From: an uncultured Acidobacteriota bacterium
GTDB lineage: Bacteria > Acidobacteriota > Vicinamibacteria > Vicinamibacterales > 2-12-FULL-66-21
Assembly: GCA_963774855.1 (NCBI GenBank)
Contig: CAVZGT010000014.1
Location: forward strand, 508,892-572,891
Direction of reading: 5' to 3'
DNA length: 64,000 bases
The notes under the pieces are model-generated. The model was not told the origin of the DNA. It searched no databases and saw only the letters and a list, made by a program, of their open reading frames with translations. This document shows positions 8,468-62,716 of this stretch, piece after piece; within the stretch, counting starts at the first letter, position 1; the number at the start of each line of letters is the position of its first letter. Made by a program: the position numbers and the translations under genes.

Positions 8468-8538
8468 AACAGGAGTTCAGGAGGTCAGGAGATTCATTCT
8501 TGAAAACAGGAAAACTCCTGATCTCCTGATCTCCTGTT
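8468..8538. repeat. word-repeat hairpin (ATCAGGAG / CTCCTGAT family)
   Basis: Left arm is AACAGGAGTTCAGGAGGTCAGGAGAT and right arm is AACTCCTGATCTCCTGATCTCCTGTT. Arms are 26 nt with 3 mismatches and a 19-nt loop. Period 8 nt. Confidence 0.8.
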
Positions 8539-8563
8539 TAAAGACAAGCGCTGGGTTGACGCC

Positions 8564-10796
8564 ATGAACACACTCGACACGACCGCATTCATCGGCAAGT
8601 TCGTCGAGGAGGCCCGGGATCGCCTGAAGGGGCTGACGGCCGCCGTGCTGCGCCTCGAGGAAGTGCCGGGCGCGCAGGATGCGATGGCCGAGGTGCTGAG
8701 GCAGGGACACAACCTGAAGGGCTCGGCGCGCATGCTCGGGCTCCTCGACATCGCGCAGGTCGTGCACCACCTCGAGGAAGTGTTCGTGGCCGCGCAGCAG
8801 GACGCGCGGCGGCTCGACGCCGTCGCCTTCGACGTCGTCCTCAGTACCGATTGACGCGCTGTCGATCCGCGTGGAGCAACTCGCGAGCGGGATCGGCACG
8901 CCCCCGGACGTCTCCGCGCTGTGCCGGACGCTCAGCGGCCTGGCGGCGGGCCCGGTGCGTGCCGCGCAGGACGGCGCAGCCCCTGCCACGCCGGCGGATG
9001 CGGCATCCGGGCCGGCGCCGCAGGCGCCCGGGTCCGTGCGGCAGTCGCTCCGCGTCCCGGTGGAAAAACTGGACGGCCTGACGCATCTCGCGGCGGAGCT
9101 GGTCATCCAGAGCCTCAAGGCCTCGCAGCGGCACGTCGAGCTGCGCCGTCTGGATACCGCGCTCGGCCGGCTGCGCGATCGCGCGCGTGAAGCGCGCCTC
9201 GCGCCCGCCGCCGCAGCCGGCGCCGGCCCCGCCTTCGGCGAGTACGCCGAAGCGCTGGAGCAACTCAGCCGGCGCCTCCGGCAGTTCTGCGGCGAGTTCA
9301 GCGACGATCGGGTGCGCCTCAACCTCATCACCGAGGAGTTCCGGCAGAACGTGATCAGCCTCACGATGCTGCCGCTGCACACGGTGTTCGACGCCTTCCC
9401 GCGCGCCGCGCGCGATCTCGCGCGGCAGTTCGACAAGGAAGTGGAGGTCACGATCAGCGGCCGTGAGACGGAGCTCGACAAGAAGATCATCGAGCAGATC
9501 TCGGATCCGCTGATTCACCTGGTGCGGAACGCGATCGATCACGGCATCGAGCGCCCGGCCGAGCGGCTTCGCAAGGTCAAGCCGGCCGCGGGCCAGCTCC
9601 TGATCTCGGCGGAGCAACAGGGAAACCGCATCCTCATTTCCGTCCGCGACGACGGCCGGGGCATCGATCCCGAGGAGCTGCGCGCCGCGGCGATCCGCCG
9701 CGCGCTCGCGCCCACCGCGGATCTGGAGCGCTGGAGCACGGCGGAGCTGCTCGAACTCGTCTTCCAGCCCGGCTTCAGCACGCGCGCGTCCACCACCGAC
9801 GTCTCGGGGCGCGGCGTCGGGATGGACGTCGTGAAAAACGTCGTCGTCCGGCTGGGCGGATCGGTGCGCATCCATTCCGAGCCGGAGCACGGGACCACGG
9901 TCGTCCTCGATCTGCCGTTGTCGCTGGCGCTCCTGCGAGTCGTGCTGGTCGAAACCGGTGACGAGCTGTTCGCGCTGCCGACGGCGTCGGTGCGCCGGCT
10001 GCTGCACGTCAAGCCCGAGGACATCCTCGCGGTGCCGGGCGGACACGCGATCGATCTGGCCGGCGAGACGATTCCGCTGACGTCCCTGAGCGTGCTGCTC
10101 AACGGATCGGCAGGGCCGGTCGCGGCGCGTCAGCCGGTGCTCGTCGCGCGTGCCGGCGAGGCGTCCTTCGGTCTGCTCGTCGAGGCGGTGCACGAGGAGC
10201 AGGAGCTCGTCTTCGAGGAGCTGCGCCACCCGCTGCGCGAGCACCGCACGTTTGCCGGCGCCGCCATCCTGGGCAACGGCGACATCGTGCCCATCCTCGA
10301 CGTCCACGCGCTCTTCGAGCTGGCCTCGCGGAAGCCGTCGATCCAGCCCGGTCCTCCGCCGGAGCGTCCCGCCGCCCCGCGCGTCGGACGCGTGCTCGTG
10401 GTCGAGGACTCGCTCGTGGCGGGCGAGCTCGAGAAGAGCATCCTGATCGCGGCGGGATACGAGGCCGAGATCGCGCACGACGGCGTGGAGGCGTTCGAGA
10501 TGCTCCTGCAGAAGCCGTGGGACCTGGTGGTCGCCGACGTGGACATGCCGCGGATGGACGGGCTGCAGCTCACGGCGCGGCTCCGGGCGGATGAGCGCTT
10601 CCGCAATCTGCCGGTCGTCATCGTCACCACGCGTGACTCGATCGAGGACCGCCGCCGCGGCTTCGACGTCGGGGCCGACGCCTACGTGCTCAAGCGCGAG
10701 TTCGATCAGAGCCACCTCCTCGACACGGTCAAGCGCCTCATCGGCCGCGCGCTGCCGGACGTCCCGGCCCCATTTCCCGGGCCGCCCGATGCTTGA
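8564..10796 (+). CDS. cheA: chemotaxis histidine kinase CheA with C-terminal receiver (CheA-REC), one frame break
   Basis: Hpt (HNLKGSARMLG), HATPase (HLVRNAIDHGIE...DDGRGID...SGRGVGMDVV), CheW-like domain, and REC (VLVVEDSLVAGE...VVADVDMPRMDG...AYVLK). One extra nt at about 8849: VVLST|IDALSIRVEQL. Confidence 0.9.
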
Positions 10797-11880
10797 GGCC
10801 GTTTCCGCCGCCCGCACGGAAGTTCGCGTCCTGATAGTGGACGACTCGGAAGTCGTGCGCCGGGTCCTCAAGACCCTGCTGGAGCTGGACCCCGAGATTC
10901 GCGTGATCGGGACGGCGGCCGACGGCGGGGAAGCCGTCGAGATGACGGCGCAGCTGCGGCCCGACGTCGTGACCATGGACCTCGTCATGCCGGGCATGGA
11001 CGGACTCGAGGCGACCTCGCGGATCATGGCGCACTACCCGACGCCCGTGCTGTTCTTCAGCTCGTACTTCGATCGCGAAGGCATGCACTCGCGGTTCGAT
11101 GCGCTCGCCGCCGGAGCGCTCGACGTCGTGGAAAAGCCCACGCTCACGCCCGACGATCAGTGGACGGCGCAGGCCGGCGCGCTCGCCCAGAAGGTGAAGG
11201 CGCTGGCGCGAGTGCCGGTCGTCGCCCACATCCGTGGCACGCACGTGCAGCCGCGGCAGCCCAATCAGGCTCGCCCGGGCCGCATGACCGGGACGCCGGT
11301 GGACGTCGTCGGGATCGGTGTCTCGTCGGGGGGGCCGCGCGTCCTCGAAGAGCTGCTGTCCGCGCTGCCGCCGGCGCTGACGTTGTCGGTTGTCGTCGTC
11401 CAGCACATGGCGGAGGGGTTCCTCGTCGGGCTGATCGAATGGCTGCAACAGCGGTGTCCCGTACCCGTGAAGATCGCTGAAGAGGGAGACCTCATCCTGC
11501 CGCGGCGGGTGCTCTTCGCGCCCGACGGCGCGCACCTGGTGGTGCGGTCCGGCGGACGCGTGCACCTCTCGGATGCGGCTCCCGTGATGGGCCATCGGCC
11601 GTCGGTGGACGTGACGCTGACGTCGCTGGCGAAGGTGTACGGCGCGCGGGCCGCCGGCATGCTGCTGACCGGCATGGGATCCGACGGCGCGCACGGGCTG
11701 CTGGCCATCCGGCAGGCCGGCGGCGTCACGATGGTGCAGAATGAAGAAACCTGCGTCGTCTTCGGCATGCCGCGCGCGGCGATCGAGATCGGGGCGGCGC
11801 AGCGCGTGCTGCCGACGACGGGCCTCATCGACAGCCTGAAGAGACTGCACACCGATCGTGTCCGGTCCATGGCGCCATGA
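10789..11880 (+). CDS. cheB: chemotaxis methylesterase CheB (REC + CheB_methylest)
   Basis: VRVLIVDDSEVVRRVLKTLLE receiver and the methylesterase core GIGVSSGGPRVLEELL...VVVQHM...GMGSDG. Its ATG overlaps the cheA stop (ATGCTTGA). Confidence 0.9.
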   Translation: MLEAVSAARTEVRVLIVDDSEVVRRVLKTLLELDPEIRVIGTAADGGEAVEMTAQLRPDVVTMDLVMPGMDGLEATSRIMAHYPTPVLFFSSYFDREGMHSRFDALAAGALDVVEKPTLTPDDQWTAQAGALAQKVKALARVPVVAHIRGTHVQPRQPNQARPGRMTGTPVDVVGIGVSSGGPRVLEELLSALPPALTLSVVVVQHMAEGFLVGLIEWLQQRCPVPVKIAEEGDLILPRRVLFAPDGAHLVVRSGGRVHLSDAAPVMGHRPSVDVTLTSLAKVYGARAAGMLLTGMGSDGAHGLLAIRQAGGVTMVQNEETCVVFGMPRAAIEIGAAQRVLPTTGLIDSLKRLHTDRVRSMAP

Positions 11881-13337: not shown

Positions 13338-15013
13338 TCTGGCTGACTGTGTCGCTGGCGGTTTTGACCGGAGCCGCCGCGGTTCTCGCGGTCGCCGTGT
13401 TCCGGCTCCGCCGGACGGTCGCCGCGCTCGAGACCCGCGCGGCGGAGGAGACGGCGAGACGCGCGGAGGCGGATGCGCAAGCCGCCGCGCGCACCACCCT
13501 CGAAGGCAGCCTGCTCCTCTGGATGCGCCACGAAATCCGGACGCCGATCAACGCCGTCGTCGGCATGGCGGATCTGCTGCTCGACCTCGAGCTCACGTCC
13601 AAGCAGCGCGAGTACCTCGGCATGCTCCGGGCGAGCGCCGAGGGGCTGTCGCGGACGGTCAACGAGGTCCTGGATCTCTGCCGGCTGGAGACCGGGCGGC
13701 TGGTGCTCGACCGTCAGCCCTTCGATCTGCGGAGCGAGGTCGACGTGTCGCTCGATCGCGTGGCCTCGATGGCAGCCGAGCGCGGGATCGATCTCTCGTA
13801 CCGCATCGACGGGCCCGCGCCGTCCACGCTGCTCGGCGACGCCGCCCGGCTCCGGCACGTGCTGGCGACGCTGCTGACCTACGCCGTGCGGCGGACGCAC
13901 GAAGGCGGAGTGACGCTGTCGGTGACGACCCGCGCGGTGCCGCCGGATCTGCACGAGGTGACCTTCGTCGTGCGCGATACCGGCATGGTCATCGCGCCGG
14001 AGCGCGCGGCGCGGCTGTTCCAGCCGCTCAGCCGCATCATCTCGTCGGATCGCGTGGCCGATGCGCAGGATCTCGGCCTCACGCTGTGCCACGGCATCGC
14101 CCGCCTGATGAGCGGCCACATCGCGCTCCGGTCCGAAGCGCGCGGCGGCTCGACGTTCGAGTTCATCATGCTGGCGGAGAACCCCGCGCGCGTCCTTCAG
14201 ACGCGGTTGCCCGTGGCGCCGCTCGAATCGGCCGCGCCGGAGTGGTCCGAGCCGCTACGGATCCTGCTGGCGGAAGACAGCATGGTCGCGCAGAAGGTGG
14301 CGATCGAGGTGCTCGAGCGGCTCGGACACACGGTCCACGTGGTCGGCGATGGACAGGACGCGCTGCACGCGCTCGAGGCCGAGCGCTACGATGTGATCCT
14401 GATGGACATGCACATGCCGGAGATGGACGGCCTGACGGCCACCCGTCGCATCTGCGAGCGCTGGCCGCGCGACCGCCGGCCGCGGATCGTCGCGCTGAGC
14501 GCGAGCGATCTGCCCGAAGACCGCGCCCGCTGGCTGGGTGCCGGCGCGGACGGCTGGGTCAGCAAGAGCCTCCCGATCGAGGAAGTGCGCCGCGTGTTGG
14601 CCGGCCTGGTTCCGGCCGGCATGGCGCTGTCGCAGGCGGCGCCCACGGGGCCCGGCGACGGCCGGCGGCCGCCGCAGCAGGGCGGCGCTCCGGGCGCGGC
14701 CGTCCACATCATCGAGATCTTCCTCCAGGACGCCGCCGCACAATTGTCGGCGCTCCGGGAGGCCGTCGACCGCCACGACGCCGCCACCGTCGAGCGCGTG
14801 GCCCATACGATGAAGGGAAGCGCCGCCATGCTCGGCGCCTCATCGGTCGCGCGCAGCTGCGCCGAACTGATCCACAATGCCCGGCATCGATCGTTTGACG
14901 GGGGCGCCGCGATCGTGTCGCAGCTCGAGGACGAGGTCGCCGCGATTCAGCGCAGCATCTCGCCGCGCCCCGCGCACTTGACCCAGACATCGGCGTCCGG
15001 ACCGCGCGAATGA
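13334..15013 (+). CDS. hybrid sensor histidine kinase (TM-HisKA-HATPase-REC-Hpt)
   Basis: H-box WMRHEIRTPINAVVGMADLL, ATPase G-boxes, receiver ILLAEDSMVAQK...VILMDMHMPEMDG, and Hpt HTMKGSAAMLGA. ATGA overlap with cheR. Confidence 0.9.
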   Translation: MIWLTVSLAVLTGAAAVLAVAVFRLRRTVAALETRAAEETARRAEADAQAAARTTLEGSLLLWMRHEIRTPINAVVGMADLLLDLELTSKQREYLGMLRASAEGLSRTVNEVLDLCRLETGRLVLDRQPFDLRSEVDVSLDRVASMAAERGIDLSYRIDGPAPSTLLGDAARLRHVLATLLTYAVRRTHEGGVTLSVTTRAVPPDLHEVTFVVRDTGMVIAPERAARLFQPLSRIISSDRVADAQDLGLTLCHGIARLMSGHIALRSEARGGSTFEFIMLAENPARVLQTRLPVAPLESAAPEWSEPLRILLAEDSMVAQKVAIEVLERLGHTVHVVGDGQDALHALEAERYDVILMDMHMPEMDGLTATRRICERWPRDRRPRIVALSASDLPEDRARWLGAGADGWVSKSLPIEEVRRVLAGLVPAGMALSQAAPTGPGDGRRPPQQGGAPGAAVHIIEIFLQDAAAQLSALREAVDRHDAATVERVAHTMKGSAAMLGASSVARSCAELIHNARHRSFDGGAAIVSQLEDEVAAIQRSISPRPAHLTQTSASGPRE

Positions 15014-16123
15014 CTGAGCCTGTCGCGAAATTCCCCAAACGGATTCTCGTCGTCGACGACGACGACGCGACCCGGTGCATCACGGAGGCGCTGGTCGAGG
15101 CTCTCGGGCACGAGGCGGAAGCGGCGCGCGACGGCATCGAAGCACTCGCGAAGCTGCGGCTCGGCCCCGACCTCGTGCTGCTCGACGTCGTCATGCCGGG
15201 CATGGACGGCTACGAGGTCTGCCGCCGCATCCGGCAGGATCCCCAGGCCGCCGGCGTGCCGGTGATCATGGTGACCTCGATGACGGGCCGCGAAGATCGG
15301 CTGCGCGCGGTCGAGGCGGGCGCCAACGACTTCATCGCCAAGCCGGTGGACAAGACGGAGCTTCGCGTCCGGTCCTTCTCGCTGCTGAAGATGAAAGAGG
15401 CGCAGGACGCGCTGAAGCGCCATCAGGCCCATCTCGAGGAGACGATCGAGCAGCGCACCGCCAGCCTGCGCGCCGCGCTCGAACAGATGGCCGAGGCGCA
15501 ACGGCTCGCGTATCGCGCCCAGCTCGACACGGTGGAGCGGCTCGCGATCGTCGCCGAGTACAAGGATCACGTCACCGCCAGCCATATCAGGCGGATGAGC
15601 GAGGTACTGCGCGGTGATCGCGCGCGGGCTGAACCTGCCGCCCGGCGAGGTCGAGCTGATCCTGCACGCCAGCCGGATGCACGACGTCGGCAAGATCGCG
15701 GTGCCCGACTCGATCCTGCGCAAGCCGTCCAGCCTGGACGGCGCCGAGTGGGTCGTGATGCGCCGGCACCCGATGATTGGCAGCCGCATCCTGGACAACT
15801 CCTCGTCGGAGCTCCTTCAGGCGGGACGCGTCATCGCGCTCTGCCACCACGAGCGCTGGGACGGATCGGGCTACCCCAACGGGATCGTCGGCACGAGCAT
15901 CCCGTTGTGGGGGCGTATCTGCGCCGTCGCCGACGTCTTCGACGCGGTGACGAGCGAACGTCCCTACAAGCCGGCGTACTCGATCGAAGAAGCGCTCCGG
16001 ATCCTGCGCGAAGGGCGCGGGACCCAGTTCGATCCTCAGGTGGTGGACGTGTTCTTCGATCAGCTCGACGAGATCCTGGCCGTGGTGGCCGAGTATCAGG
16101 ACAAGAACAACGCGCTCGACTGA
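15010..16123 (+). CDS. response regulator with HD-GYP domain (putative c-di-GMP phosphodiesterase), one frame break
   Basis: REC (ILVVDDDDATRC...LLDVVMPGMDG) then HD-GYP (HIRRMSE|YCAVIARGLNL, HDVGKIAVPD, HHERWDGSGYP). Extra G at 15604. ATGA overlap with the hybrid HK. Confidence 0.85.
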
Positions 16124-17189: not shown

Positions 17190-17973
17190 GTGCAGCTCGA
17201 TCTTCCATTCCTCCGTCCCTCGCCGGCCGGCACCATCCAGGAGGTGGCCCCCCCGACGGGGGCCCCGCAGCGTCCGGAATGTCCTGATCCGGCCGGCATT
17301 CCGTTGCCGGACCCTCCGGCGATCGACTTCGTCCGCATGCGACGCGCGAAGCGATACGTGCTCCGTGTGCGGCCCGACGGCAGCGTACGGGTCACCGTGC
17401 CTCGCGGCGGCTCGCGGGCCGAAGCGGTCCGATTTCTCGAACGGCACGCGGCCTGGATTCAGCGGGAGCGGGCGCGGCTCGGATCGGCGCGGGGCGCCTT
17501 TCAGTGGACCGACGGCGCGACGATCCTGTTGCGCGGGGAGCGCGTCACGCTACGCGTGGACCACGACGGCGCCGTCCGGTGGGCACGCTTCGGCGATCGA
17601 TCGGTCAGAGGTTCCGGCCGGGGCCGTGGATCTGCGTCCGTACATCGAGGCCGACCTGCGCGCGCTGGCGCGCGAGGAACTGGCGCCGAGAGTGAGCGCG
17701 TTTGCGGCCCTGCACGACCTGACCGTCGCCGGGGTCTCGATCCGCAACCAGAAATCGCGCTGGGGCTCGTGTTCCCCGAGCGGCCGGATCGCGTTGAACT
17801 TCCGGCTGGTGCAGATGCCCCGCGAGGTCTGCGACTACGTCCTGCTCCACGAGCTGATGCACCTCCGGCAACAGAACCACTCGCGGCGCTTCTGGCGCCT
17901 GGTCGAGGCGGTGTGTCCGGGCTTCCGCGCCGCCGAGCGATGGCTCAAGACGGAAGGGAGGGGGTTGTTCTGA
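17190..17973 (+). CDS. YgjP-like metallopeptidase (DUF45 / M48-related), one frame break
   Basis: [25 protein letters not shown]...FLERHAAWI in the N-terminal part and SRWGSCSPSGRIALNFRLVQMP...LLHELMHLRQQNHSRRFW (HExxH) in the C-terminal part. Frame change at about 17608. Confidence 0.75.
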
Positions 17974-17984: not shown

Positions 17985-18095
17985 TAGTCACGAATCACTA
18001 ATCGCGAATCCTTGGATCATCGAATCGGTCGCGACAAGTCCTGCAGTGCGCGATGCAAGGATTCGACGATTCAGGATTAGTGATGAGTGATTGAG
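17985..18095. repeat. word-repeat hairpin (AATCAC/AATCC family)
   Basis: The left arm CTAGTCACGAATCACTAATCGCGAATCCTTG faces CAAGGATTCGACGATTCAGGATTAGTGATGAGTGATTGAG. Imperfect, with a ~40-nt central region. Confidence 0.6.
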
Positions 18096-23074: not shown

Positions 23075-23075
23075 C

Positions 23076-46705: not shown

Positions 46706-46717
46706 ATATGCGAACCC

Positions 46718-47494: not shown

Positions 47495-49089
<1,595 letters not shown>

Positions 49090-49139
49090 AGTGTCCGTTC
49101 AGCCGCGAAGCCGGTGCCCCGCGCAACGCATTGTTCGAT

Positions 49140-50108: not shown

Positions 50109-50120
50109 CGTCAGGTTCGA

Positions 50121-50979: not shown

Positions 50980-51016
50980 GGTCTTTTTTGTCCTGTCCCG
51001 TGGGCCCTTAGGTAGC

Positions 51017-51073
51017 GCCGGCCTTCAGGCCGGCATTTCGAGGCCGTTGCCGTCTGCCGGCCTGAAGGCCGGC
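51017..51073. repeat. pair of GC-stem tetraloop hairpins (GCCGGCC-TTCA-GGCCGGC and its complement)
   Basis: 51017-51034 is GCCGGCCTTCAGGCCGGC and 51056-51073 is GCCGGCCTGAAGGCCGGC. Confidence 0.7.
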
Positions 51074-51074
51074 T

Positions 51075-51660
51075 CTACTTGTGTCCACCGCCATGCGGTT
51101 CGGGCGAAGCGGGCGGAGCAGGCGCCGGCGGCGTCCCGCTCGCGGGCGCCGGCACTCCGATCGTTCGTCCACCCGACGACTCGCCCATCGCGGGAGCGTG
51201 CGTGCCCGTCCGCGGATCGAGAACAGGGGCGGCCCGGACCGGCAGCCCGCGCTGCACGATCAGCTTTTTCGCCTCGGCGATCGGTATGTGCGCGACGCCC
51301 GTGGCCTGATTGACCCACCCGTAACCCTCGAAGCTCCTTCGCCTCCGTCATCCGGAATCTTCGCGAGGGCCTCGGGTTCGTTGGTCTGCAGGTGCGGCCC
51401 CGCCGGAAGCAGCTCGGGGCACTTCGTCGAGGTCGGCAAATGGGCACGTCGGCCGGGCGAGCGGCGACAGCTGCGGGTCGTTCGTGGCCGCCTGGTGGGT
51501 GAGGACGCGGAACAGCCCCCACATCAGCAGGAACGCAGTCGGCCACCACCGCCACTATCCCCACGCCGAACCGGAGAATCGTCCGGACGTCGACATCGGA
51601 CTGCTCGTGCGCAACGTCCTCGTTGTCCAGCTCCGGCGAGGAATGATCAGTGGACGTCAT
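51075..51660 (-). CDS. conserved single-TM membrane protein at the ActG position of the ACIII cluster, three or more frame breaks
   Basis: MTSTDHSSPELDNEDVAHEQSDVDVRTILRFGVGIVAVVA|TAFLLMWGLFRVLTHQAATNDPQLSPL...PELLPAGPHLQTNEPEALAKI|RMTEAKEL|EGYGWVNQATGVAHIPIAEAKKLIVQRGLPV. The start overlaps the actF end by 14 nt. Confidence 0.5.
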
Positions 51661-52840: not shown

Positions 52841-52842
52841 CC

Positions 52843-53451
52843 TCAATGCTTCTCGGGCGCGCGCGCGCCACCGCCGGGTTGGGGCGGCTTCGTCGGATCG
52901 CCGCCCTCGATGTCGGACGCCGCCGCGTGCTGGCTCAGTTGCAGCGCGCGGAGGTAGGCGACAATCGCCCACCGGTCGCGGGGCGCGATCTGCGCCTTGT
53001 AGTCCGGCATCACGCCGAACCCGTTCGTGATCACGTCGAAGATGTATCCGGCGTCGGCCTGCAGCAGCCGGTCGCTGTGGAACGACGGCGGCTCGCGATA
53101 CCCGCGCCGCACCACCAGGCCGTCGCCCTTGCCCGTCTGGCCATGGCACGGCGAGCAGTAGATGTTGAACCGCTCCTGGCCGCGATCGAGGACGTGCTCG
53201 TCGATCGCAAACGGCAGCTCCTTCACGGTCGCGTTGCTGACCTTGCCGGTGAAGAACGCGTCGTCTTCCTGCAGCGTCCCGCGCGCCACCGTCCCCTCGA
53301 CCCGCGGCCGCGCGCTCGCGCCGTCGGTGAAGAACACGCTCGGGCGCAGCCCGCGGTACTTGGGTTGATTGTGCATGTCCTGGCGGCAGCCCGACGCCAG
53401 CACTAGACAGATCGCCCCCAGCACGAAGCCCGTGGCGCTACGCTTCGACAT
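52843..53451 (-). CDS. actE: Alternative Complex III subunit ActE (mono-haem cytochrome c lipoprotein)
   Basis: Lipobox LVLASGC, a single CSPCH haem site and FGVMPDYKAQIAPRDRWAIVAYLRALQ. Confidence 0.8.
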   Translation of the reverse strand: MSKRSATGFVLGAICLVLASGCRQDMHNQPKYRGLRPSVFFTDGASARPRVEGTVARGTLQEDDAFFTGKVSNATVKELPFAIDEHVLDRGQERFNIYCSPCHGQTGKGDGLVVRRGYREPPSFHSDRLLQADAGYIFDVITNGFGVMPDYKAQIAPRDRWAIVAYLRALQLSQHAAASDIEGGDPTKPPQPGGGARAPEKH

Positions 53452-53989
53452 CGTTCACTTCCTTCGCCCCGAGGCCCTGCAGGAACGTCCGCGTCGCCTG
53501 CCGATCGAACTTCGGATCGACGGCCTCGATCGCCAGGAAGAAGCTGTCCTGGCTGGCGTGCGCGGTGAACCGCTCCACGTTGAACACCGGGTGATACGGC
53601 ATCGGCAGCCCGTTCAGGATGAACATCCCGAACACCGCCGCGAAGGCCGCAAAGAGAATCGTCAGCTCGAAGGCGATCGGCACGAACATCGGCCAGCTCA
53701 GATTCGGCCGGCCGCCGATGTTCATCGGATACGCGTAGGCCGACACCCACACCTGGAGCCCGAGCCCCGTCAGCAGGCCCGTGATCCCGCCGCCGAGGAC
53801 CAGCCACGGCACCCGCCGATCCTCGAGGTGCATCGCGCTGAAGATGTCGTGGATCGGAAACGGCGAGAACGAGTCGAACCGCCGATAGCCCTCGTCGTAG
53901 GTGCGGCGCGCCGCCTCGACGAGCGCCGTCGGATCCTCGAACTCGGCCATCACGCCGTAGAGCGTCGACCCGGCTGGTGTGTGATCCAT
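53438..53989 (-). CDS. actD: Alternative Complex III subunit ActD (DUF3341)
   Basis: LYGVMAEFEDPTALVEAARRTYDEGYRRFDSFSPFPIH..., two TM helices, and ...SFFLAIEAVDPKFD. Confidence 0.8.
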   Translation of the reverse strand: MDHTPAGSTLYGVMAEFEDPTALVEAARRTYDEGYRRFDSFSPFPIHDIFSAMHLEDRRVPWLVLGGGITGLLTGLGLQVWVSAYAYPMNIGGRPNLSWPMFVPIAFELTILFAAFAAVFGMFILNGLPMPYHPVFNVERFTAHASQDSFFLAIEAVDPKFDRQATRTFLQGLGAKEVNDVEA

Positions 53990-54000
53990 GGCTCACGCGC

Positions 54001-55403
54001 TCAGTGCGCCTTGCCTCCCCTCACCTTGGCGGCGGGCACGACCGTGCGCATCTCGAAGATCGAGATCATCGGCAGCACCCGGATGAACAGGAAGAAGAGC
54101 GTGACGAACAGCCCGATGCTCCCGAAAAACGTCATCCAGGTCCCACCGCGTCGGCCAGTACATGCCCCACGACGAGGGCAGGAAGTCGCGGTGCAGGCTC
54201 GTGACGACGATGACGAAGCGCTCGAGCCACATCCCGACGTTGACGACCATCGAGATGAGGAACAGCTTGATCGGCGAGGTCCGCACCGACTTGATCCAGA
54301 GGAACTGCGGCGTGACGATGTTGCACAGGATCAGCGTCCAGTAGAACGGCCAGTACGGGCCGGTCATCCGGTTCAGGATCATGTACTCCTCGTAGCGGTT
54401 GGCGCTGTACCAGCCGAAGAACGCCTCCATCACGTAGCCGTAGCCCACCATCAGGCCGGTGACGAGCATGACCTTGCCCATGTTCTCCAGGTGCCGCATC
54501 GTCAGGAAATCCTGGAGGTTGTACAGGACCCGCAGCGGAATCGCGAGCGTCAGCACCATCGCGAACCCGGCGTAGATCGCGCCGGCGACGAAGTAGGGCG
54601 GGAAGATCGTCGCGTGCCAGCCGGGGATGATGCCGATCGTGAAGTCGAAGCTCATGACCGTGTGGACCGACAGGACCAGCGGCGTCGAGAGGCCGGCGAG
54701 CAGCAGGTAGGCCGATTCATAGCGCTCCCAGTGCCGGGCCGATCCGCGCCACCCGAGCGCGAGCATGCCGAAGAGCCGGCGGATGTGCAGGCTCTTCGCG
54801 CGATCGCGCAGCGTCGCGAGATCGGGCACGAGCCCGACGTACCAGAACAGGAGCGAGACCGTCAGGTACGTGGAGACCGCGAAGAGGTCCCAGATGAGCG
54901 GGCTGCGGAACTGCGGCCAGATCCCCATCGTGTTGGGGTACGGCACCAGCCAGTAGGCCGCGAGCCACGGACGGCCGGTGTGAATCAGCGGGAAGATGCC
55001 GGCGCAGGCGACCGCGAAGAGCGTCATCGCCTCGGCGAACCGGTTGATCGACGTGCGCCAGTCCTGTTTGAGGAGCAGCAGGATCGCCGAGATCAGCGTC
55101 CCGGCATGGCCGATGCCGATCCACCAGACGAAATTGATGATCGCGAAGCCCCAGCCGATCGGGACGTTCACGCCCCAGATGCCGGTGCCCTTGATGAGCA
55201 GCCAGGTGATCGACATCAACAGGACCATGCACAGGTTGAAGCCGATGAACAGCCCGAAGACCCAGCTCCACGGATGGCGCCGGGTGAGGACGATCGCGGC
55301 GATCTGCTCGGTGACCGAGGCGAACGTGTGCCCCGGCTCGATCACGCGGCGGCGGGTTGTAGTCGTCGTCCCGCCTCGGGTCGTTGTCGTCGCGGTTGGC
55401 CAT
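54001..55403 (-). CDS. actC: Alternative Complex III subunit ActC (NrfD-like quinol-interacting membrane subunit), two frame breaks
   Basis: The ATG overlaps the actB stop (TGATG). [60 protein letters not shown]... Frame changes at about 55345 and 54137. Confidence 0.8.
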
Positions 55404-58400
55404 CAGTGTTCTGTCGTCGAAGCGGCCGGTGCCGGTTCCAGCTCGGGGTTCGGGTTCCGCAGCGCCGCGAGATACGTGGTCCGCGGGCGCGTGTTCAGGT
55501 CCTCGAGCACGCCGTAGTTGCGCTGTTGCGCCTTGAGCTTCACCACCTGGCTCGATCGGATCGTTCAGATCGCCGAAGACGATCGCGTCGGAGGGGCAGA
55601 CGGCCTGGCACGCCGTGACGACCTCGCCGTCGCGGATCTTCCGGTCCTCGCGCTTGGCGTCGATGCGCCCCTGGTTGATGCGCTGCACGCAGTACGTGCA
55701 CTTCTCCATCACGCCGCGGCTCCGCACCGTGACGTCAGGGTTGCGCAGCGGCTCGAGGCTCGGCGTGGTCCAGTCCTGATACAGCAGGAAATTGAAGCGG
55801 CGCACCTTGTACGGACAGTTGTTCGAGCAGTACCGGGTGCCGACGCACCGGTTGTAGACCATGTCGTTCAGGCCTTCCGAGCTGTGCGTCGTCGCGGCCA
55901 CTGGACAGACGGGCTCGCACGGCGCGTTCTCGCACTGCATGCAGGGCACGGGCTGGTGGTACGCCGCGACAGGCTGGCCGCTCTCGAGGTCCGACTCCTC
56001 CCCCGCGAAGTAATGATCGACGCGAATCCAGTGCATCTCGCGTCCGGCCGCGACCTGCTCCTTGCCGACGACCGGGATGTTGTTCTCGGCCGTGCACGCC
56101 ATCGTGCACGCGCCGCAGCCCGTGCACGAGGAGAGGTCGATCGCCATGCCCCACTTGTATCCCTCGTAGGGACGGTCGGGGTACATCGTGAGCGTCCGTG
56201 GAAAGTTGTGCACCTGATGCTGGATGACGGCCGGCTCGTGCGTGTACTGCTCGAGCGTCGCGACCCGGATGGGCACGCGTCCTTCCATCAGATGGTGCTC
56301 CTGCGTCGTCGCGAGCAGGTAGCGATCGCCGGTCTTCGAGATCTCGAGGCCGCTGCCGAACCACGGGGCGTCGGAGGTGCGAAGGAGGTAGGCGTTGAAC
56401 GCCTCGGCGCCGGCCGTGGCAGTGCCGACCCGGCCGGCCATGACGCCTGCCGTAGCCGAGAAACACCGTGACGGACTGCGCGGGATGGCCGGGGACCCGG
56501 AACACGGGCATGCGCGCGGTGTTGCCGCGATAGCGCAGCTCGATCACGTCGCCGTCGCTCAGGCCGCGTTCCCTGGCGAGCTGCGGGCTGATCCACGCCG
56601 ACGGGTCCCACGTGATCTTCGTCAGCGGCTTGGGCAGCTCCTGGAGCCAGCCGTTGTTCGCGAAGCGGCCGTCCCAGATCGTCGGATCGGGCCGGAAGAT
56701 GATCTCGAGCGCTCCCTGCGCGGCCGCGGACGGCGGCGCGGCGGCGCGGCGGCCGGGGCGGCGCCGCGGCGGCAGCGGCCGGCGCGGCCGCGGACGGCGC
56801 CGTGAACGGCGTGGCCTGTCCGCCGTCGGCGATCGCGGTGCCGCCGATGAACCCGTCGTGCAGGGCCCGGCGCCAGAACGTGTCGGCGTCCTTGAACGGT
56901 AGACCGTCCGCGCCGCGGATGGACCAACCGCTGGCCCCTCCGAACGCGCGGGTCCAGTAGTCCTTGACGATCTGGGAGCCGTGGCGATCCGGCTGCGCGG
57001 TGAACACGCCGAGCAGCTCGTGCGCCGATCGGCCCTCGTACAGCGGCGCAATCAGCGGCTGAATGATCGTGACCGTGCCGTCGTACGCGCGCGCATCGCC
57101 CCAGCTCTCGAGCGGATGGGCCTCGGCGACGTTCCATTGGCACAGGTTCGCCGTTTCGTCGACGTGCAGTCCGTGATAGACCGTCATGCCGACCTTCACG
57201 AGCTTCTCTGAGAATTTCAGGTCGGCGGGCGCGGTGTAGACGGGATTGCCGCCGAGGATGACGAGCAGCTCCACCTGTCCCGCGTCGATCGACCGCACGA
57301 GCTCGTTGAGCGATGCCGCCTGATCGGCCGGCGCCGCTTCGATAGCCGCCCCGTACGTGACCGTTGCGCCGACGTTGCCGAGCGCCTGGTTCATGGCGTG
57401 CGCGGCCGCGTGCACTGCCGCCGGCTGATAATCTCCCGCAACCACCAGGGATGTGCCCCGGTGCGCCTGAAGGTCTTTGGCGAGCGCCGCGACCCACTTC
57501 GCCGCGTCGGCGTTGGCCGGCTCGGGACTCGGGACTCGGGACCCGGGACTCGGAGAGCTTCCCGACCCTGCTCCGAGGCTGCCGGACAACTGGCGCGCAA
57601 ACCCCTCGATCTCTCCGGCCTTGAGCACGAGGCGGTGATCCGCCTTGGCGCCGGTCAGCGAGGGCGTGCTCTCGATCGCATAGAAGCGGTTCATCTCCTT
57701 GCGGTCGTCGGTGATCCGCCGGCGGGACGCAAAGTCCTTCTGGTACCGCACGCAGCCGGGGCCGCTGGCCAGGAAATCGGCGTCGAGCGACACGACGACG
57801 TCGGCCTTGTCGAAGTGATAGATGACGTTGGTCGGCGAGCCGCCGTCGCGAGCCGTGCGCCGTCGCGGGTGACCGGATCGTACTGATGCCACCGCGCCTG
57901 CGGGTTTTCCGTCAGGATTGTCGACAGCAAATCGGCGAGCGACGGGGAGGTGATCGGGCCGGTCAGGAACCGGAGCCCCGCTCCCTGCCGGGCCTTCTGG
58001 CTCTTCGCCGCCACCACCATGTCGCTGAGAAACTTGCCCCAGGGCCTGATCTCACTGCGGAAGGTAGTCGTCTGGGCGCGATCCGGATCGTACAGATCGA
58101 GGATGGCGGCCTGGGTGATCGCGTCGGTCGCGCCGAGGCTGGCCGGATGCTGGGGGTTGCCCTCAATTTTGGTCGGACGCCCCATATGGCTCTCGACCAG
58201 GACGGGCTGGGCGATGCCGGACAGCGGAATGGCGCTGGCGAAAAACAGGGGACGGCCGGGGACGATGTCCTCGGGCTGCTTTATATAAGGAACGATCTCT
58301 TCGGCCGGCTGTTTCGTGCACGCGCCGACCCCGGCGAGCGCGAGCGAGGCGCTCATGAGCTTGAGGAACTGCCGGCGGCCCTTCGGGTCGTTCCACTCGG

Positions 58401-58530
58401 ACGCCTGCTCGGGGAATTCCCGGTGCAGGTACTCGCGGAACTCCAGCGTGTCGGCCAGTTCGCCGAGGCTGCGCCAGTACATGCGGCCCTCGGCGCCGGC
58501 AAGACGGGATCGGATGACAGAAGGATCCAT
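55403..58530 (-). CDS. actB: Alternative Complex III subunit ActB (Tat signal, molybdopterin-oxidoreductase-like domain fused to 4Fe-4S domain), four frame breaks
   Basis: [20 protein letters not shown] Tat signal. [11 protein letters not shown]...[33 protein letters not shown], and Fe-S motifs [25 protein letters not shown] and [12 protein letters not shown]. Frame changes at about 57848, 56715-56790, 56445 and 55555. Confidence 0.85.
57519..57558. repeat. GGGACTC heptamer array inside the actB coding sequence
   Basis: GGCTCGGGACTCGGGACTCGGGACCCGGGACTCGGAGAGC is the complement of the GAGTCCC word found in intergenic arrays. It translates in frame as [15 protein letters not shown]. Confidence 0.7.
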
Positions 58531-58538
58531 GCTCAATT

Positions 58539-58639
58539 CAGCTACCAGCTACCAGCTACCAGCTACCAGCTTCCCGCAATCCGCTCCCGGCTTTTCGAGC
58601 TCCATGCTGGAAGCTGGAAGCTGGAAGCCGGAAGCTACC
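58539..58639. repeat. word-repeat hairpin (CAGCTAC/CAGCTTC versus GGAAGCT) filling the actA-actB spacer
   Basis: (CAGCTAC)x4 plus CAGCTTC faces GCTGGAAGCTGGAAGCTGGAAGCCGGAAGCTACC, with a regular A-A mismatch every 7 nt. The right arm includes the actA stop. Confidence 0.85.
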
Positions 58640-59294
58640 TATGGCATGTCGAGCAGCTTGTCAGCTGTTCGACGCTCGCGACCTTGTACGCCTCGACGAG
58701 ACGCTTGCCGAAGTCCCGGTCGCCGGCCGGGCGCTCCCACGCCATGTTGAACACCTGATCGCGCGGGCGGATGTACTTCGCGGGATCGCGGTGGCAGTCC
58801 AGGCACCAGGACATCGTGAGCGGGGATTCCTGGTACATGAGGGGCATCCGATCCACCGGCCCGTGGCACGTGGCGCAGCCGACCCCTTGTTTCACGTGAA
58901 TACTGTGGTTGAAATACACGAAATCCGGCAGATCGTGGACCCTCGTCCAGCGCAGCGGCGTGTTGTCGCGGAAGCTGGCCCTGACCGGCTCGAGGATGGG
59001 CGCGGTGGCCCAGATCTGCGAGTGGCAGTTCATGCAGGTTTTCGTGGGCGGGATATTGGCGAAAGCCGACTCTTCCACGGACGTGTGGCAGTAGCGGCAG
59101 TCGATCCCCATGCCGCCGACGTGGTGGGCATGGCTGAACTGGACCGGCTGCTCGACGAACCGGTTCTGGCCGGTGTTGTAGCCGGACAGATGGAGCAGAC
59201 CGACCGAGGTGCCGAGGACGGCCACGAACCCTACCGCCGCCAGAATGCTGAGCCGGGAGTAGATGTTCGCGTAGCGATGGAAGATCTGACTCAT
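58635..59294 (-). CDS. actA: Alternative Complex III subunit ActA (penta-haem cytochrome c)
   Basis: N-terminal TM anchor and five CxxCH sites (CRYCH, CMNCH, CATCH, CLDCH, CSTCH). ATG at 59292-59294. Confidence 0.85.
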   Translation of the reverse strand: MSQIFHRYANIYSRLSILAAVGFVAVLGTSVGLLHLSGYNTGQNRFVEQPVQFSHAHHVGGMGIDCRYCHTSVEESAFANIPPTKTCMNCHSQIWATAPILEPVRASFRDNTPLRWTRVHDLPDFVYFNHSIHVKQGVGCATCHGPVDRMPLMYQESPLTMSWCLDCHRDPAKYIRPRDQVFNMAWERPAGDRDFGKRLVEAYKVASVEQLTSCSTCHR

Positions 59295-59469: not shown

Positions 59470-59519
59470 GCTAAAGTTCTAAAGTTCTGAAAGTTCGAAT
59501 GTTCTACAGTCTCTAATCG
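59470..59519. repeat. AAAGTTCT word array (complement of AGAACTTT)
   Basis: The sequence is GCTAAAGTTCTAAAGTTCTGAAAGTTCGAATGTTCTACAGTCTCTAATCG. Confidence 0.5.
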
Positions 59520-59529: not shown

Positions 59530-60419
59530 ATGACCGAGCCATCGTCCTGCGCGGCGTCACCAAGCGGTTCGACGGGACCGTGGCCGTGAACGATCTCTCG
59601 CTCACCGTCCCCACGGGCTCGATCTACGGCTTCATCGGCCCGAACGGCTCCGGCAAGACGACGACGCTCAGGATGATCATGCACATCCTGCTGCCCGACG
59701 AAGGGCAGATCGAGGTCCTCGGGTCGAGCGACACCGCCGCGGCGCGCGATCGCGTGAGCTACCTTCCCGAGGAGCGCGGGCTCTACAAGAAGATGACGAT
59801 TCGCCGTCTGCTGCGGTACTACGCCCGCCTCAAAGGCGGATCGCGCAGCCGCATCGACGCGGCGATCGACGAGTGGATGGCGCGGATGGAGCTGCCGGGG
59901 CTGCTCGATCGGCAGATCGAGACGCTCTCGAAGGGGATGTCGCAGAAGGTCCAGTTCATCGCCGCGGTCGTCTCGGACCCGGCGCTGCTGATCCTGGACG
60001 AGCCGTTCTCCGGCCTCGACCCCGTCAACGCCCAGGTGCTGAAAGACGCGGTGCTCGAAATGCGGCGCCGCGGCGCCACGGTCGTCTTCAGCACGCACGA
60101 CATGGCGACCGCCGAGCGCATGTGCGATCGCATCTTCATGATCTTCCGCGGCCGGAAAGTGCTCGACGGGTCGCTCGAGAGCATCCAGGACCAGTACGGC
60201 GCCGACACCGTCCGGATCCGCACGTCGGCCGGCGCCGCCGCGCTCGCCGGCATGCCGGACGTGGAATCGGTCAACGACTTCGGCCAGCTCCAGGAAGTGC
60301 GTCTCAAGGGGGATCCGCAGGCGTTTCTCTCGCGCCTCGCCGCGCGCACGGCGATCTATCACTTCGAGGTCACGCGCCCGTCGCTGCAGGACATCTTCGT
60401 GCGGATTGCCAAGCCGTAG
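59530..60419 (+). CDS. ABC transporter ATP-binding protein (ABC-2/NatA-like), frame break at codon 4
   Basis: GGAG then ATG 59530 (MTE), with 1 nt missing at about 59540. Then IVLRGVTKRFDGTVAVNDLSLTVPTGSIYGFIGPNGSGKTTT, LSKGMSQK and LLILDEPFSGLD. Confidence 0.85.
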
Positions 60420-60597
60420 GAGACAGGAGTCAGGAGACAGAATTCAGGAGACAGGAGGCAGGGGTGGCAAACCGTACCTAGCGTCCGGCTTCAGCCGGAC
60501 CAAGGCGGTTGGAAGATTGCACGAGACAGGAGACCGAAGACCGGAGACCGAAGACCTGAGACCGAGACCGAAGACCTGAGACCTGAGACCTGAGACC
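60419..60597. repeat. purine-rich GAGACAGG/GAGACC word arrays flanking a TTCA-loop hairpin
   Basis: 60419-60462 is GGAGACAGGAGTCAGGAGACAGAATTCAGGAGACAGGAGGCAGG. 60483-60500 is GTCCGGC-TTCA-GCCGGAC. 60523-60597 is GAGACAGGAGACCGAAGACCGGAGACCGAAGACCTGAGACCGAGACCGAAGACCTGAGACCTGAGACCTGAGACC. Confidence 0.75.
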
Positions 60598-61928: not shown

Positions 61929-62118
61929 GGGGTTCTACAGGGTTCCGCTGGGTTCTACAGGGTTCCGCAGGGTTCTGTTCCACGGGGTTCGGTTCCACGG
62001 GGTTCTGCACCTCGAACCTCGACGAACCTTGAACCTGGAACCTTGCGGAACCTAGTGGAACCCCGCCGAACAGAACCGAGCGGAACCCTGTAGAACCCCG
62101 TGGAACCTTGAGGAACCT
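61929..62118. repeat. ~190-nt word-repeat hairpin (GGGTTCY arm versus GGAACCY arm)
   Basis: The left half carries GGGGTTCTACAGGGTTCCGCTGGGTTCTACAGGGTTCCGCAGGGTTCTGTTCCACGGGGTTCGGTTCCACGGGGTTCTG. The right half carries ...GAACCTGGAACCTTGCGGAACCTAGTGGAACCCCGCCGAACAGAACCGAGCGGAACCCTGTAGAACCCCGTGGAACCTTGAGGAACC. Confidence 0.85.
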
Positions 62119-62126
62119 TTTCCGGG

Positions 62127-62669
62127 ATGGACACGTTGTCGCATGGCGCGTGGGGCTACGTGGCGCTCCATCGTATTCCGGGGCTGGCGTGGTGGGGTGT
62201 GCTGGCCGGCGCCGCACCCGATCTGCTGTGGTTCGTGCCCAGCAAGATCGAGCAGGTTTCCGAAAAAGGATGGACCGCGCTCACGATCGGTCGCGAGCCG
62301 GGAATCTGGCGCGCCGACGGACCGCCGCTGCCCCCGGAGCTGGTCGAGGCGTACTTCCGCTACTACGTCTGGACGCACAGCCTCGTCATGCTCGCGATCG
62401 TCACCGCCGTCGTGCTCATGACTCGATGGCGGCGGCTGGCGTGGCTCGCCGCGCCGTACGCGCTGCACATCCTCATGGACATGCCGACCCACGAGCGCTA
62501 CCAGACCCAGCCGCTCTATCCGCTGTCGTCGTGGAGCGTTCGCGGCGTGTCGTGGGCCGATCCCCGCATTTTCTGGCCGCACGCGGTGATGCTGGTGGTC
62601 GCACTGGGCTTCGTGTGGTGGAGGCGGAGAACCCCGCGGAACCGAACCTGGCGAACCCCGCGGAACTGA
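62127..62669 (+). CDS. membrane-bound metal-dependent hydrolase (YdjM/DUF457-like); C-terminal tail read from a repeat
   Basis: MDTLSHGAWGY...APDLLWF...YYVWTHSLVMLAIV...HILMDMPTH. The last 14 codons (RRTPRNRTWRTPRN) are GGAACCC words. Confidence 0.7.
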   Translation: MDTLSHGAWGYVALHRIPGLAWWGVLAGAAPDLLWFVPSKIEQVSEKGWTALTIGREPGIWRADGPPLPPELVEAYFRYYVWTHSLVMLAIVTAVVLMTRWRRLAWLAAPYALHILMDMPTHERYQTQPLYPLSSWSVRGVSWADPRIFWPHAVMLVVALGFVWWRRRTPRNRTWRTPRN

Positions 62670-62716
62670 ACCCTGCGGAACCCAGTGGAACCCCGCGGAA
62701 CCCCGTTGAACCCTCA
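62627..62716. repeat. unidirectional GGAACCC word array
   Basis: The sequence is GAGAACCCCGCGGAACCGAACCTGGCGAACCCCGCGGAACTGAACCCTGCGGAACCCAGTGGAACCCCGCGGAACCCCGTTGAACCCTC. It lies between convergent gene ends. Confidence 0.8.

Follow-up and report, generated by a model that had tools for sequence, protein, structure and literature searches.

The stretch of DNA considered here (the window) is 64,000 nucleotides of contig CAVZGT010000014.1 (NCBI GenBank assembly GCA_963774855.1, positions 508,892 to 572,891 of the forward strand), from an uncultured Acidobacteriota bacterium of the order Vicinamibacterales. Our subject is the DNA between its genes, much of which consists of tandem arrays of 7-10 nt words, some of them facing an inverted copy of themselves. 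The window has a G+C content of 63-70%, no tRNA genes were found in it, and Pfam matches bear out the operon contexts given for the arrays in an earlier reading of the bare sequence (the first-pass annotation), namely CheW with Hpt-CheA, ClpS with ClpA, a PmbA/TldD pair, a multihaem cytochrome, and an ABC ATPase with an ABC-2 permease. The arrays as observed are genuine, dense and lineage-wide. They are also an instance of a repeat class that is already known, and unexplained, and whose paired architecture has been described before; the earlier statement that no described family has such an architecture was wrong, since both tandem heptamers and the paired arrays of Geobacter had been published.

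Tandem words in the spacers

Direct reading and Tandem Repeats Finder both find short-period tandem arrays at all of the loci where they had been reported. In a self-match scan of the window (cut-off of at least 80% identity across 28 nt), nine segments have period 7, two have period 8 and three have period 10, while the single period-9 segment lies within coding DNA and periods 1-6, 11 and 12 yield no segment. Against these 14 strong segments of period 7, 8 or 10, 20 second-order Markov simulations gave none at any period. Put in terms of intergenic simple-sequence repeats, at least 3 tandem copies of a 5-11 nt unit occur in the window far above chance. A curated gene map was needed for the comparison with coding DNA, since several genes are split over reading frames. 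On this map, the arrays with periods not divisible by 3 occupy 838 of 3,886 spacer bases (21.6%) versus 139 of 57,860 coding bases (0.24%), so that word density is strongly enriched in spacers and not equal inside genes. The claim that the arrays are intergenic holds in this quantitative sense and fails at 57519-57558, where an array lies in frame within an ActB-like gene. About 17 of some 32 genuine spacers of at least 25 nt bear arrays, close to the 18 of 30 first counted, and the usual array extends from the stop codon, or a few bases off it, to the ribosome-binding site of the downstream gene. CRISPR, in which direct repeats of 23-50 nt are separated by unique spacers of similar length, had rightly been set aside, because the units here, of 7-10 nt, are contiguous and have no unique spacers between them. 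As for structured RNA families, Rfam returned no match at the gathering score in the window and 131 kb of relatives, and a permissive search (E up to 1) returned only chance hairpin matches to microRNA precursor models. The array loci of the window are as follows, with RNA folding energies and z scores where they bear on the class of element.

8468-8538: hairpin element in the cheW / Hpt-cheA spacer, (CAGGAGNT)x3, loop, (CTCCTGAT)x3; fold -45.1 kcal/mol, z = -8.6
17985-18095: GAATC/GATTC-type words in an imperfect hairpin, flanked by a YgjP-like gene and a probable acetyltransferase gene (from translation); fold -46.4 kcal/mol, z = -3.8 (moderate)
23209-23349: hairpin element between convergent genes, (ACGGAGGA)x4.4, AT-rich loop, (CTCCGTTG)x3.8 and degenerate CTCCG units; fold -64.5 kcal/mol, z = -8.8
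24346-24384: solo array (CAGCTTC)x5.4 in a divergent spacer, stopping 8 nt short of the minus-strand gene's start codon
24385-24422: solo array (GAATCCC/GAGTCCC)x5.7 with a 14-nt superperiod and a G-quadruplex motif on the minus strand
25224-25243: weak array of just 2.2 copies, (CAGAACTTT)x2.2, occupying the 32-nt spacer of two same-strand genes
26229-26334: second copy of the CAGGAG...CTCCTGAT hairpin, between convergent genes; fold -44.3 kcal/mol, z = -6.3
28041-28113: hairpin of ACGGAG/CTCCGT words in the spacer of two PmbA/TldD-family genes; fold -37.0 kcal/mol, z = -6.6
30955-31024: solo array of 10 heptamers (AATCCCT...AGTCCCG) beginning on the stop codon of a YCII gene; sense strand C-rich and unstructured (-4.2 kcal/mol over 81 nt, z = +1.7)
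37165-37267: solo decamer array (GGAACCCNNN) taking up the entire clpS-clpA spacer; unstructured, z = +1.0
38592-38692: AATCC(C)/GGATT words in a hairpin at the 3' end of a metallo-beta-lactamase-fold gene; fold -28.7 kcal/mol, z = -1.8 (weak)
40661-40715: solo array (GGTCTCG/GGTCTTT) between two same-strand genes
41185-41231: short array (CTTTAGAA)x3 overlapping the stop codon of a probable peroxiredoxin gene (from translation)
57519-57558: heptamer array (CTCGGGA)x4.7 in coding DNA, where it lies in frame within the ActB-like gene's low-complexity, Ser/Pro/Gly-rich linker
58539-58639: hairpin element between the multihaem cytochrome (ActA-like) and ActB-like genes, (CAGCTAC)x4.7, loop, (GCTGGAA)x4.4; fold -58.5 kcal/mol, z = -5.3
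59470-59519: solo array (CTAAAGTT)x5.5 in a divergent spacer
60419-60597: ABC ATPase / ABC-2 permease spacer of composite make-up, (AGGAGAC)x6.4, a REP-like hairpin (GTCCGGCTTCAGCCGGAC), (GAGACCG)x10.9; the 3' array has a 34-nt superperiod and is unstructured, z = +0.1
61929-62118: longest hairpin, a (GGGTTCNNNN) array facing a (GGAACCNNN) array, beginning 1 nt past a stop codon; central 150 nt fold -97 kcal/mol, z = -10.4
62627-62716: solo decamer array (GGAACCCNNN) between convergent genes, with a G-quadruplex motif on the minus strand

Within the window the vocabulary is small, as had been claimed, and each word family recurs at 2-5 loci, which are unlinked and lie on both strands. Across the lineage it is not small, with 66 distinct canonical heptamers in 98 non-redundant arrays. 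The canonical word AAGCTGG, for example, is found at 24346-24384 and 58606-58636 and also in L001, L136, L141 and L150 (L-numbers denote contigs of the comparison set described below), and the canonical word of 41185-41231 is that of 59471-59516 in reversed orientation. At the position of the coding array 57519-57558, L001 has a stretch of similar length that is non-repetitive, and its counterpart of the 58539-58639 spacer is about 20 nt long and has no array.

The arrays affect how genes are called. Those at 37163-37266 and 40661-40719 contain no in-frame stops, so that a mechanically drawn open reading frame (ORF) reads through the spacer: the result is a clpS-clpA read-through frame in the one case and, in the other, a fused 40174-41187 ORF that is really two genes. 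The ORF at 62127-62669 ends within a GGAACCC array. Automatic annotators could likewise mis-call fusions or extended C-termini across arrays. Judging from the translations, the region 46403-59294 is an apparently ordinary respiratory cluster of cytochrome oxidase subunits, an SCO1-like gene and alternative-complex-III-like genes (an NrfD-like membrane subunit, the ActB-like gene and the multihaem ActA-like gene), with Pfam support for the cytochrome and, weakly, for the ActB-like gene; word arrays lie at two of its internal junctions.

Hairpins, solo arrays and dispersed families

Two architectures can be told apart. In the one, an array and its inverted copy lie across an AT-rich loop and form a hairpin of 70-190 nt; in the other, a solo array is no more structured than shuffled sequence and sometimes less so (30955-31024, the clpS-clpA spacer and the GAGACC array are examples). 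Array and inverted array stand together at 8 loci of the window, and the hairpins are strong at six of them (8468, 23209, 26229, 28041, 58539 and 61929), where they span -37 to -97 kcal/mol and are far more stable than shuffled sequence (z = -5.3 to -10.4). The long hairpins first proposed thus stand at these six loci, moderately so at 17985, and only weakly at 38592. Pairs of same-word arrays at most 400 nt apart are inverted in 20 of 22 cases, with inter-arm gaps of 1-105 nt, versus 16 direct and 12 inverted among distant pairs. In the window, as in L100, L125, L136, L141, L151 and L153, hairpin elements begin no more than 10 nt from a stop codon. Moreover, G exceeds C in the 5' arm of 17 of 21 hairpins (p = 0.007; 15 to 4 with duplicate families removed), and this G-first polarity reads alike from either strand.

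None of the window hairpins has a U tail, there being at most 2-3 T past the stem. A 15-kb scan (window 17-32 kb) found 5 canonical U-tailed terminators where 7.1 were expected, shuffled sequence giving more, and no site falls in an array. Avoidance of Rho loading sites was considered as a rule for array orientation and rejected: in 30 spacers between same-strand genes, the first sense-strand array has more G than C in 14 cases and more C than G in 14. Motifs of the G3N1-7 quadruplex type number 8 in the whole window, and 6 of these are word arrays, all of two families; the other families have no G tracts.

Some word families have been copied among spacers and not grown independently, since distant copies have their ends, loops and linker bases in common. 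The 8468 and 26229 elements (CAGGAG...CTCCTGAT) are homologous end to end, at 74% overall with arms and ends near-identical. In the GGAACCC family, 37165-37267, 62615-62725 and both arms of 61929-62118 align in register, variable linker bases included, and in L151 an element occurs twice, its loop unchanged, at a distance of 6 kb (2471 and 8745). The same picture is obtained from counts. An identical canonical word is shared by 12 of 129 array pairs (9.3%) that lie on the same contig more than 400 nt apart, versus 43 of 4,823 pairs (0.9%) on different contigs, and with one mismatch allowed the figures are 21.7% within and 4.2% between contigs.

MITEs carry terminal inverted repeats flanked by a target-site duplication, and the first-pass annotation was right to separate the arrays from them, for no target-site duplication is present at the ends of the two CAGGAG copies or of the two L151 copies. 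It was also right to separate them from classic REP elements: the conserved GTAG head is absent from the word arrays, and classic GTAG hairpins exist separately in the window. The latter REP/REPIN-like elements are at 51010-51078 (an inverted doublet), 23075-23145, 30195-30235 and 60476-60500, with the consensus GTAG(C/A)GCCGGCCTTCAGGCCGGC. Their presence suggests that a RAYT-type system coexists with the word arrays. No transposase or RAYT was seen among the window ORFs tested, and 64 kb is too little to judge.

Turnover among relatives and the origin of the arrays

The nearest species-representative genome is a Vicinamibacterales metagenome-assembled genome (MAG), at 67% identity for a single protein. 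Synteny links its neighbourhood to the window, and arrays of the same kind are present there. Further relatives came from a metagenome scan with the PmbA-like protein, which brought in 80 soil contigs with identities from 94 down to 62%. Period 7 is again the commonest in 564 kb of this related material, ahead of the neighbouring periods, with 90 arrays versus 24 at period 8, 16 at period 9, 6 at period 6, 4 at period 10 and none at periods 5 and 11. In control loci from the same first scan, 150 kb from Planctomycetota and Verrucomicrobiota held no period-7 or period-8 array, and 1.13 Mb of mostly Bacteroidota loci held 43, apparently concentrated in a few genomes; the feature is therefore typical of the Vicinamibacterales lineage yet not unique to it. 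Nor are genome-specific heptamer vocabularies confined to Acidobacteriota. L020, from a Tidjanibacter sp. MAG, has ATTTTGA/TCAAAAT at 4 loci (140-170, 11822-11854, 17204-17240 and 17518-17549), and heptamer arrays are likewise present in the Bacteroidota control loci L026, L032 and L034.

These comparisons also bear on whether the arrays could be an artefact of assembly or polishing, a notion to which we attach practically no weight. It could draw on the fact that this assembly carries systematic single-base errors, an extra G in GAG[G]TACT, that break reading frames. However, the errors detected are 1-nt indels, unlike 7-nt periodic sequence, and the same architecture is seen in dozens of contigs assembled independently by other projects, with homologous arrays at two loci.

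The frame breaks deserve a description of their own. It is these breaks in the assembly, and not missing genes, that cause large gaps in codon-usage gene maps. There are 5 occurrences of the octamer GAGGTACT versus 0.45 expected (15601-15608, 27116-27123, 27462-27469, 13611-13618 and 36977-36984), and 3 of these sites are frame breaks, one in a response-regulator/HD-GYP gene and two in a TldD-like gene. Both TldD-like sites have one G fewer in 5 of 5 relatives (GAG-TACT). The pattern resembles a systematic error, of basecalling or of assembly, tied to one specific motif that may be methylated. Further split genes are the metallo-beta-lactamase-fold gene (37561-38608), MacB/FtsX genes (31489-34120 and 41761-43075) and the ActB-like gene (55403-58536), and a frame break may also lie behind the split between Hpt ORF and CheA core at 8854/8871.

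What happens at one orthologous site is best seen in the pmbA-tldD spacer, the length of which ranges from about 10 to about 260 nt among the relatives. Short spacers there (about 10-25 nt) consist of a ribosome-binding site alone, without an array; long ones (60-260 nt) hold arrays, REP-like GTAG hairpins or another GC-rich element. The ACGGAG hairpin of the window has a homologue, diverged, only in L081/L082 (94% amino-acid identity), and other lineages have CTTGAGC, GACGTGC, GAAGAGT, CACGAAG, GGCTCAG, CGCGAAG, GGTTCAG, GAATCTGA and more, many of them again laid out as array and inverted array. For this spacer, the proposal that orthologous spacers be aligned has a divided answer: arrays recur at the same position in some relatives, but the words mostly differ or the array is absent. 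Two other occupants of this spacer are recorded here in their own right. GTAG-headed hairpins with TTCAG or TTTAG loops are found in L085, L089, L093, L101, L111, L118 and L153. A conserved GC-rich element of about 120 nt is found in L092 (~2650-2770), L109 (~11360-11530, as two partial copies) and L115 (~2470-2600); it reads ACGAGCGGAACGGAGCGGGGCGC..GGGGCCCCCGCGAGTG.AGCGAGT..GGGGGTCCGGGGG.AGCGCCCC..ATCGAGGGGCGATAT.CCCCCGGAGA, has no Rfam match, and may represent a structured RNA or else a further dispersed element.

Some words can be traced to local sequence. The words ATCGAGG of L145 and AAGGATCT of L157 are duplicates of the conserved local ribosome-binding site (GAGGAT and AAGGATCA, respectively). 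In the vocabulary as a whole (87 words), the most over-represented tetramers are AGGA and GGAG, which are Shine-Dalgarno pieces (z about 4), and the stop-codon contexts CTGA, TGAA and CTAA are likewise enriched, which fits seeding from gene-boundary sequence. A pattern of growth is visible as well. The 30955-31024 array has an orthologous GGGATT-type array in L083 (~81% nucleotide identity), in which the units near the gene are conserved and those far from it are peculiar to each lineage, and within 30955-31024 adjacent units are more alike than remote ones. Other arrays have 14-, 20- and 34-nt superperiods. In hairpins the two arms show matched changes, GGCTT going with AAGCC and GGCTC with GAGCC (L098, L100). 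A candidate case of unit change, 7-nt gaps in one contig cluster, resolved into two differences, an indel of 6 nt within a glycine-rich coding repeat and, apart from it, a gap of one base.

With moderate confidence, we take the arrays to be the Vicinamibacterales case of intergenic tandem-heptamer or STRR-type repeats, born by local slippage, grown in blocks, doubled by inversion and occasionally copied. An array would begin with the duplication in place of 7-8 nt of local spacer sequence, often from the surroundings of a ribosome-binding site or a stop codon, as is visible in part of the cases. It would then grow by duplication of blocks of 1, 2 or more units, a pattern that the arrays display, with slipped-strand loops of at least 5 nt presumably escaping mismatch repair; that bigger slipped loops evade this repair has been argued by Huang and Mrazek 2014. 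Usually the array would become an inverted pair round an AT-rich loop, by a doubling step that we infer from the observed pairing, and as a consequence a transcript or single-stranded DNA of either strand could fold into a hairpin of 70-190 nt, the arms of which would change together. Some families are copied to further spacers of the same genome, and dispersal gives each genome a vocabulary of its own. Arrays expand up to a constraint, so that they reach from the stop codon as far as the following ribosome-binding site or promoter, and they are nearly absent from coding DNA. The hairpin class probably behaves like REP, BIME and REPIN elements, and at 3' ends and between cistrons it could block 3' exonucleases or partly stop transcription. 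Solo arrays would be unstructured filler, and the elements would mostly be tolerated passengers rather than sequence-specific regulatory sites.

Several points weigh against this slippage account. The G-rich 5' arm of 17 of the 21 hairpins is not predicted by it, because hairpin stability is equal whichever arm comes first. No gain or loss of units was found in arrays of contigs that are 99.5-99.9% identical (L103/L104, L125/L126 and L081/L082), so that slippage, if it operates, is not fast. The similarity of adjacent units seen at 30955-31024 does not extend to a general rule: it is not significant over all arrays (p = 0.26), some of which alternate with period 14, and as a rule it was rejected. 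The model names no copying mechanism, and the REP-like role is one that we infer. Finally, near-identical word cores in Geobacter, a member of another phylum, hint at sequence-specific selection or horizontal spread.

A rival possibility is that the hairpins are non-autonomous REPIN- or MITE-like mobile elements, moved by an enzyme encoded elsewhere (RAYT/IS200-IS605-type or another recombinase) for which the arms are binding sites. We consider this possible, though doubtful. Elements kilobases apart have their ends and loops conserved (8468/26229, L151 2471/8745 and the GGAACCC family), the inverted geometry of 20 of 22 nearby pairs is REPIN-like, the G-first polarity suggests that a single-stranded form is read, Geobacter insertion sequences lie a constant distance away from comparable sites according to Aklujkar et al. 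2009, and the classic GTAG REP/REPIN elements in the same window mean that a RAYT is probably encoded somewhere in the genome. But the elements are without target-site duplications or a GTAG-like conserved head, the words at one site visibly derive from its own local sequence, orthologous arrays differ by lineage-specific units added in place, unrelated words are far too many for the recognition site of a single enzyme, and the window ORFs tested offer no transposase, with the limit on that sample given above. A sequence-specific role is a second alternative, in which the arrays are multivalent binding platforms and each word family marks a regulon; the partners proposed are an IHF/HU-type DNA regulator, or CsrA, cold-shock/S1 proteins or 30S subunits on AGGAG-like units. 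That vocabularies are genome-specific, with same-word sharing 10-fold higher within a contig, would suit this idea, as would AGGA and GGAG being the top enriched tetramers, the CTCCTGA, TCTCCGT and GTTGCTYN cores held in common with Geobacter metallireducens in the same paired inverted layout, and a preprint in which deletion of heptamer repeats in Nostoc altered the output of the recO promoter. Local seeding explains the Shine-Dalgarno and stop-codon fragments equally well, however, and it is hard to see regulon marks in 66 different heptamers among 98 arrays, in an orthologous spacer that has many different words or no array among relatives, in putative sites that are base-paired in the hairpin class, or in flanking genes with no functional theme. 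We regard binding platforms as unlikely, and the data favour a local slippage origin with REP-like hairpin behaviour over them.

Two narrower ideas concern particular families or loci. The GGG families (GAGTCCC/GAATCCC read as GGGACTC/GGGATTC, and GGAACCC read as GGGTTCC) might be G-quadruplex regulatory repeats like GGGAATC of Xanthomonas and GGGGATT of Nostoc, and the share of word arrays among the quadruplex motifs of the window, together with the very similar G-rich intergenic heptamers, inverted pairs included, in Rehm et al. 2015, gives this some attraction. Just two of about seven families are capable of it, the G-rich strand is not consistently the sense strand, and in hairpin elements the G-rich arm is paired with a C-rich partner, all of which leaves it decidedly improbable. 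Contingency loci, in which frequent gain and loss of units switches or tunes neighbouring genes, would be favoured by arrays that adjoin start codons or promoters (24346-24422 and 59470-59519) and by the reported behaviour of heptamer repeats in some pathogens. Most arrays lie at 3' ends or between cistrons, though, and are flanked by housekeeping genes, and hypermutability was rejected on the unchanged unit number in all arrays of the 99.5-99.9% identical contigs; this is a very remote prospect. A last idea is that the arrays are the substrate or footprint of a dedicated system and not of passive slippage, such as a single-strand copying enzyme or a multivalent single-stranded nucleic acid-binding protein that reads hairpins with a G-rich 5' arm. 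In that case one machinery or selection, at work in both phyla, may be the reason why CTCCTGA and CTCCGT are also found in Geobacter. We think it quite unlikely; if true, it would provide a first mechanistic handle on the dominance of tandem heptamers among prokaryotic intergenic repeats.

Two further spacers of the window stand apart from the word arrays. At 2097-2555, upstream of a gene that from its translation is probably cytochrome-c-peroxidase-like, is an AT-rich spacer of 459 nt with 52% G+C in a 67% G+C genome; it holds no arrays and no ORF with a Pfam match, and may be a promoter or regulatory region or a small RNA. At 47424-47503, a 42-nt unit is repeated 1.9 times (Tandem Repeats Finder score 111), covering the spacer that separates two cytochrome oxidase subunit genes as well as the beginning of the ORF downstream, and it is unrelated to the 7-10 nt words.

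These arrays bear on why tandem heptamers are, as reported, the commonest periodic repeat between prokaryotic genes. The lineage is an extreme case that is open to study, with a fifth of its spacer DNA in arrays and hundreds of related soil contigs, and with cultured relatives in Vicinamibacter and Luteitalea. The regularities that are new are the local ribosome-binding-site or stop-codon origin, the preference for inverted pairs, the G-rich 5' arm, the genome vocabularies, the copying between spacers, the fast turnover of words at orthologous sites versus the stability of arrays among near-identical strains, and the cores held in common with Geobacter. On the practical side, the very stable hairpins within operons could shift the expression ratios of flanking genes.

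Comparison with known repeat systems

The nearest analogue is in Geobacter metallireducens. Aklujkar et al. 2009 describe intergenic sites, present in multiple copies, each with 3-5 hepta- or octanucleotides in tandem and for the most part arranged as opposite-strand pairs at variable distance (Gmet_I1xx-I3xx and Gmet_H4xx, with consensus GTTGCTYN, TCTCCGTS[Y] and MTYCTGA, one pair lying between proB and proA), for which binding of IHF/HU was hypothesized. Units of 7-8 nt, the paired inverted layout, the multicopy intergenic occurrence and the position between operon genes are all as in the window. As far as those consensus sequences and the class 1/2 captions go, MTYCTGA resembles CTCCTGAT, TCTCCGTS and GTTGCTYN resemble CTCCGTTG, and the TCAGGAG arm comes first in both organisms. 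Geobacter cores are found in the window as CTCCTGAN in 2-3 copies at 8515 and 26279 and as the GTTGCTCC type in 3 copies at 23281, and the 3' arm of 23209-23349 fits the class-1/class-2 consensus GTTGCTYN / TCTCCGT; about 0.07 such matches are expected by chance, a rough estimate made after seeing the match. The differences are the phylum, the period of CTCCTGA (7 there, 8 here), and the few classes there versus dozens of words in this lineage.

The cyanobacterial STRR repeats, which Mazel and colleagues reportedly described in 1990 with the words CCCCAGT, TTGGTCA and CAACAGT, are alike in that a few heptamer words form tandem repeats at numerous intergenic loci within a genome, in either strand, and differ in that a hairpin layout is not defining for them. 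Those three words have no tandem occurrence in the 564 kb, and TAACTGA, GGGAATC and GGACCGG are also absent as tandem copies. Direct repeats of the heptamer TAACTGA are described from Beggiatoaceae, cyanobacteria and Bacteroidetes (MacGregor 2015). They again place heptamer direct repeats in the spacers of unrelated phyla, but as a single word just upstream of start codons and almost never inverted, whereas here there are many words, mostly at 3' ends and mostly in inverted pairs. In Xanthomonas (GGGAATC) and Nostoc (GGGGA(T/C)T), the intergenic repeats have the same flanking genes in related species while length and sequence vary, and such G-rich heptamer repeats are sometimes inverted pairs and lie between convergent genes (Rehm et al. 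2015). G3 heptamers are present in both settings, GGGATTC and GGGACTC being quadruplex-capable here, although the word here is GGGATTC and in Xanthomonas GGGAATC, and most families here are not quadruplex-capable. Deletion of heptamer repeats in Nostoc had modest promoter effects (recO), according to a preprint.

With REP, BIME and REPIN elements, the arrays have in common an extragenic position at 3' ends and between operon genes, imperfect palindromes, inverted doublets forming hairpins of about 100 nt, and genome-specific families that vary between relatives at orthologous sites. The doublet geometry of REPINs is matched and whole-element copies are present, but the arms here are tandem words of 7-10 nt versus a single palindrome of 20-40 nt with a GTAG head.

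The broadest class to which the arrays belong is that of intergenic simple-sequence repeats of 5-11 nt, with which they agree in head-to-tail units of 7 nt (also 8-11 nt), in intergenic enrichment and in free-living hosts. Tandem heptamers are the most abundant intergenic periodic repeat across prokaryotes, of function not known (Mori et al. 2019, SPADE), and a heptamer excess in bacteria is attributed to Mrazek 2007 as cited by Rehm et al. 2015. Vicinamibacterales do not figure in the literature found on intergenic tandem heptamers. Set against the heptamers known from other genomes, the arrays of this lineage are unusually dense, at a fifth of spacer bases, and they are mostly inverted pairs that form long hairpins and belong to dispersed, genome-specific families.

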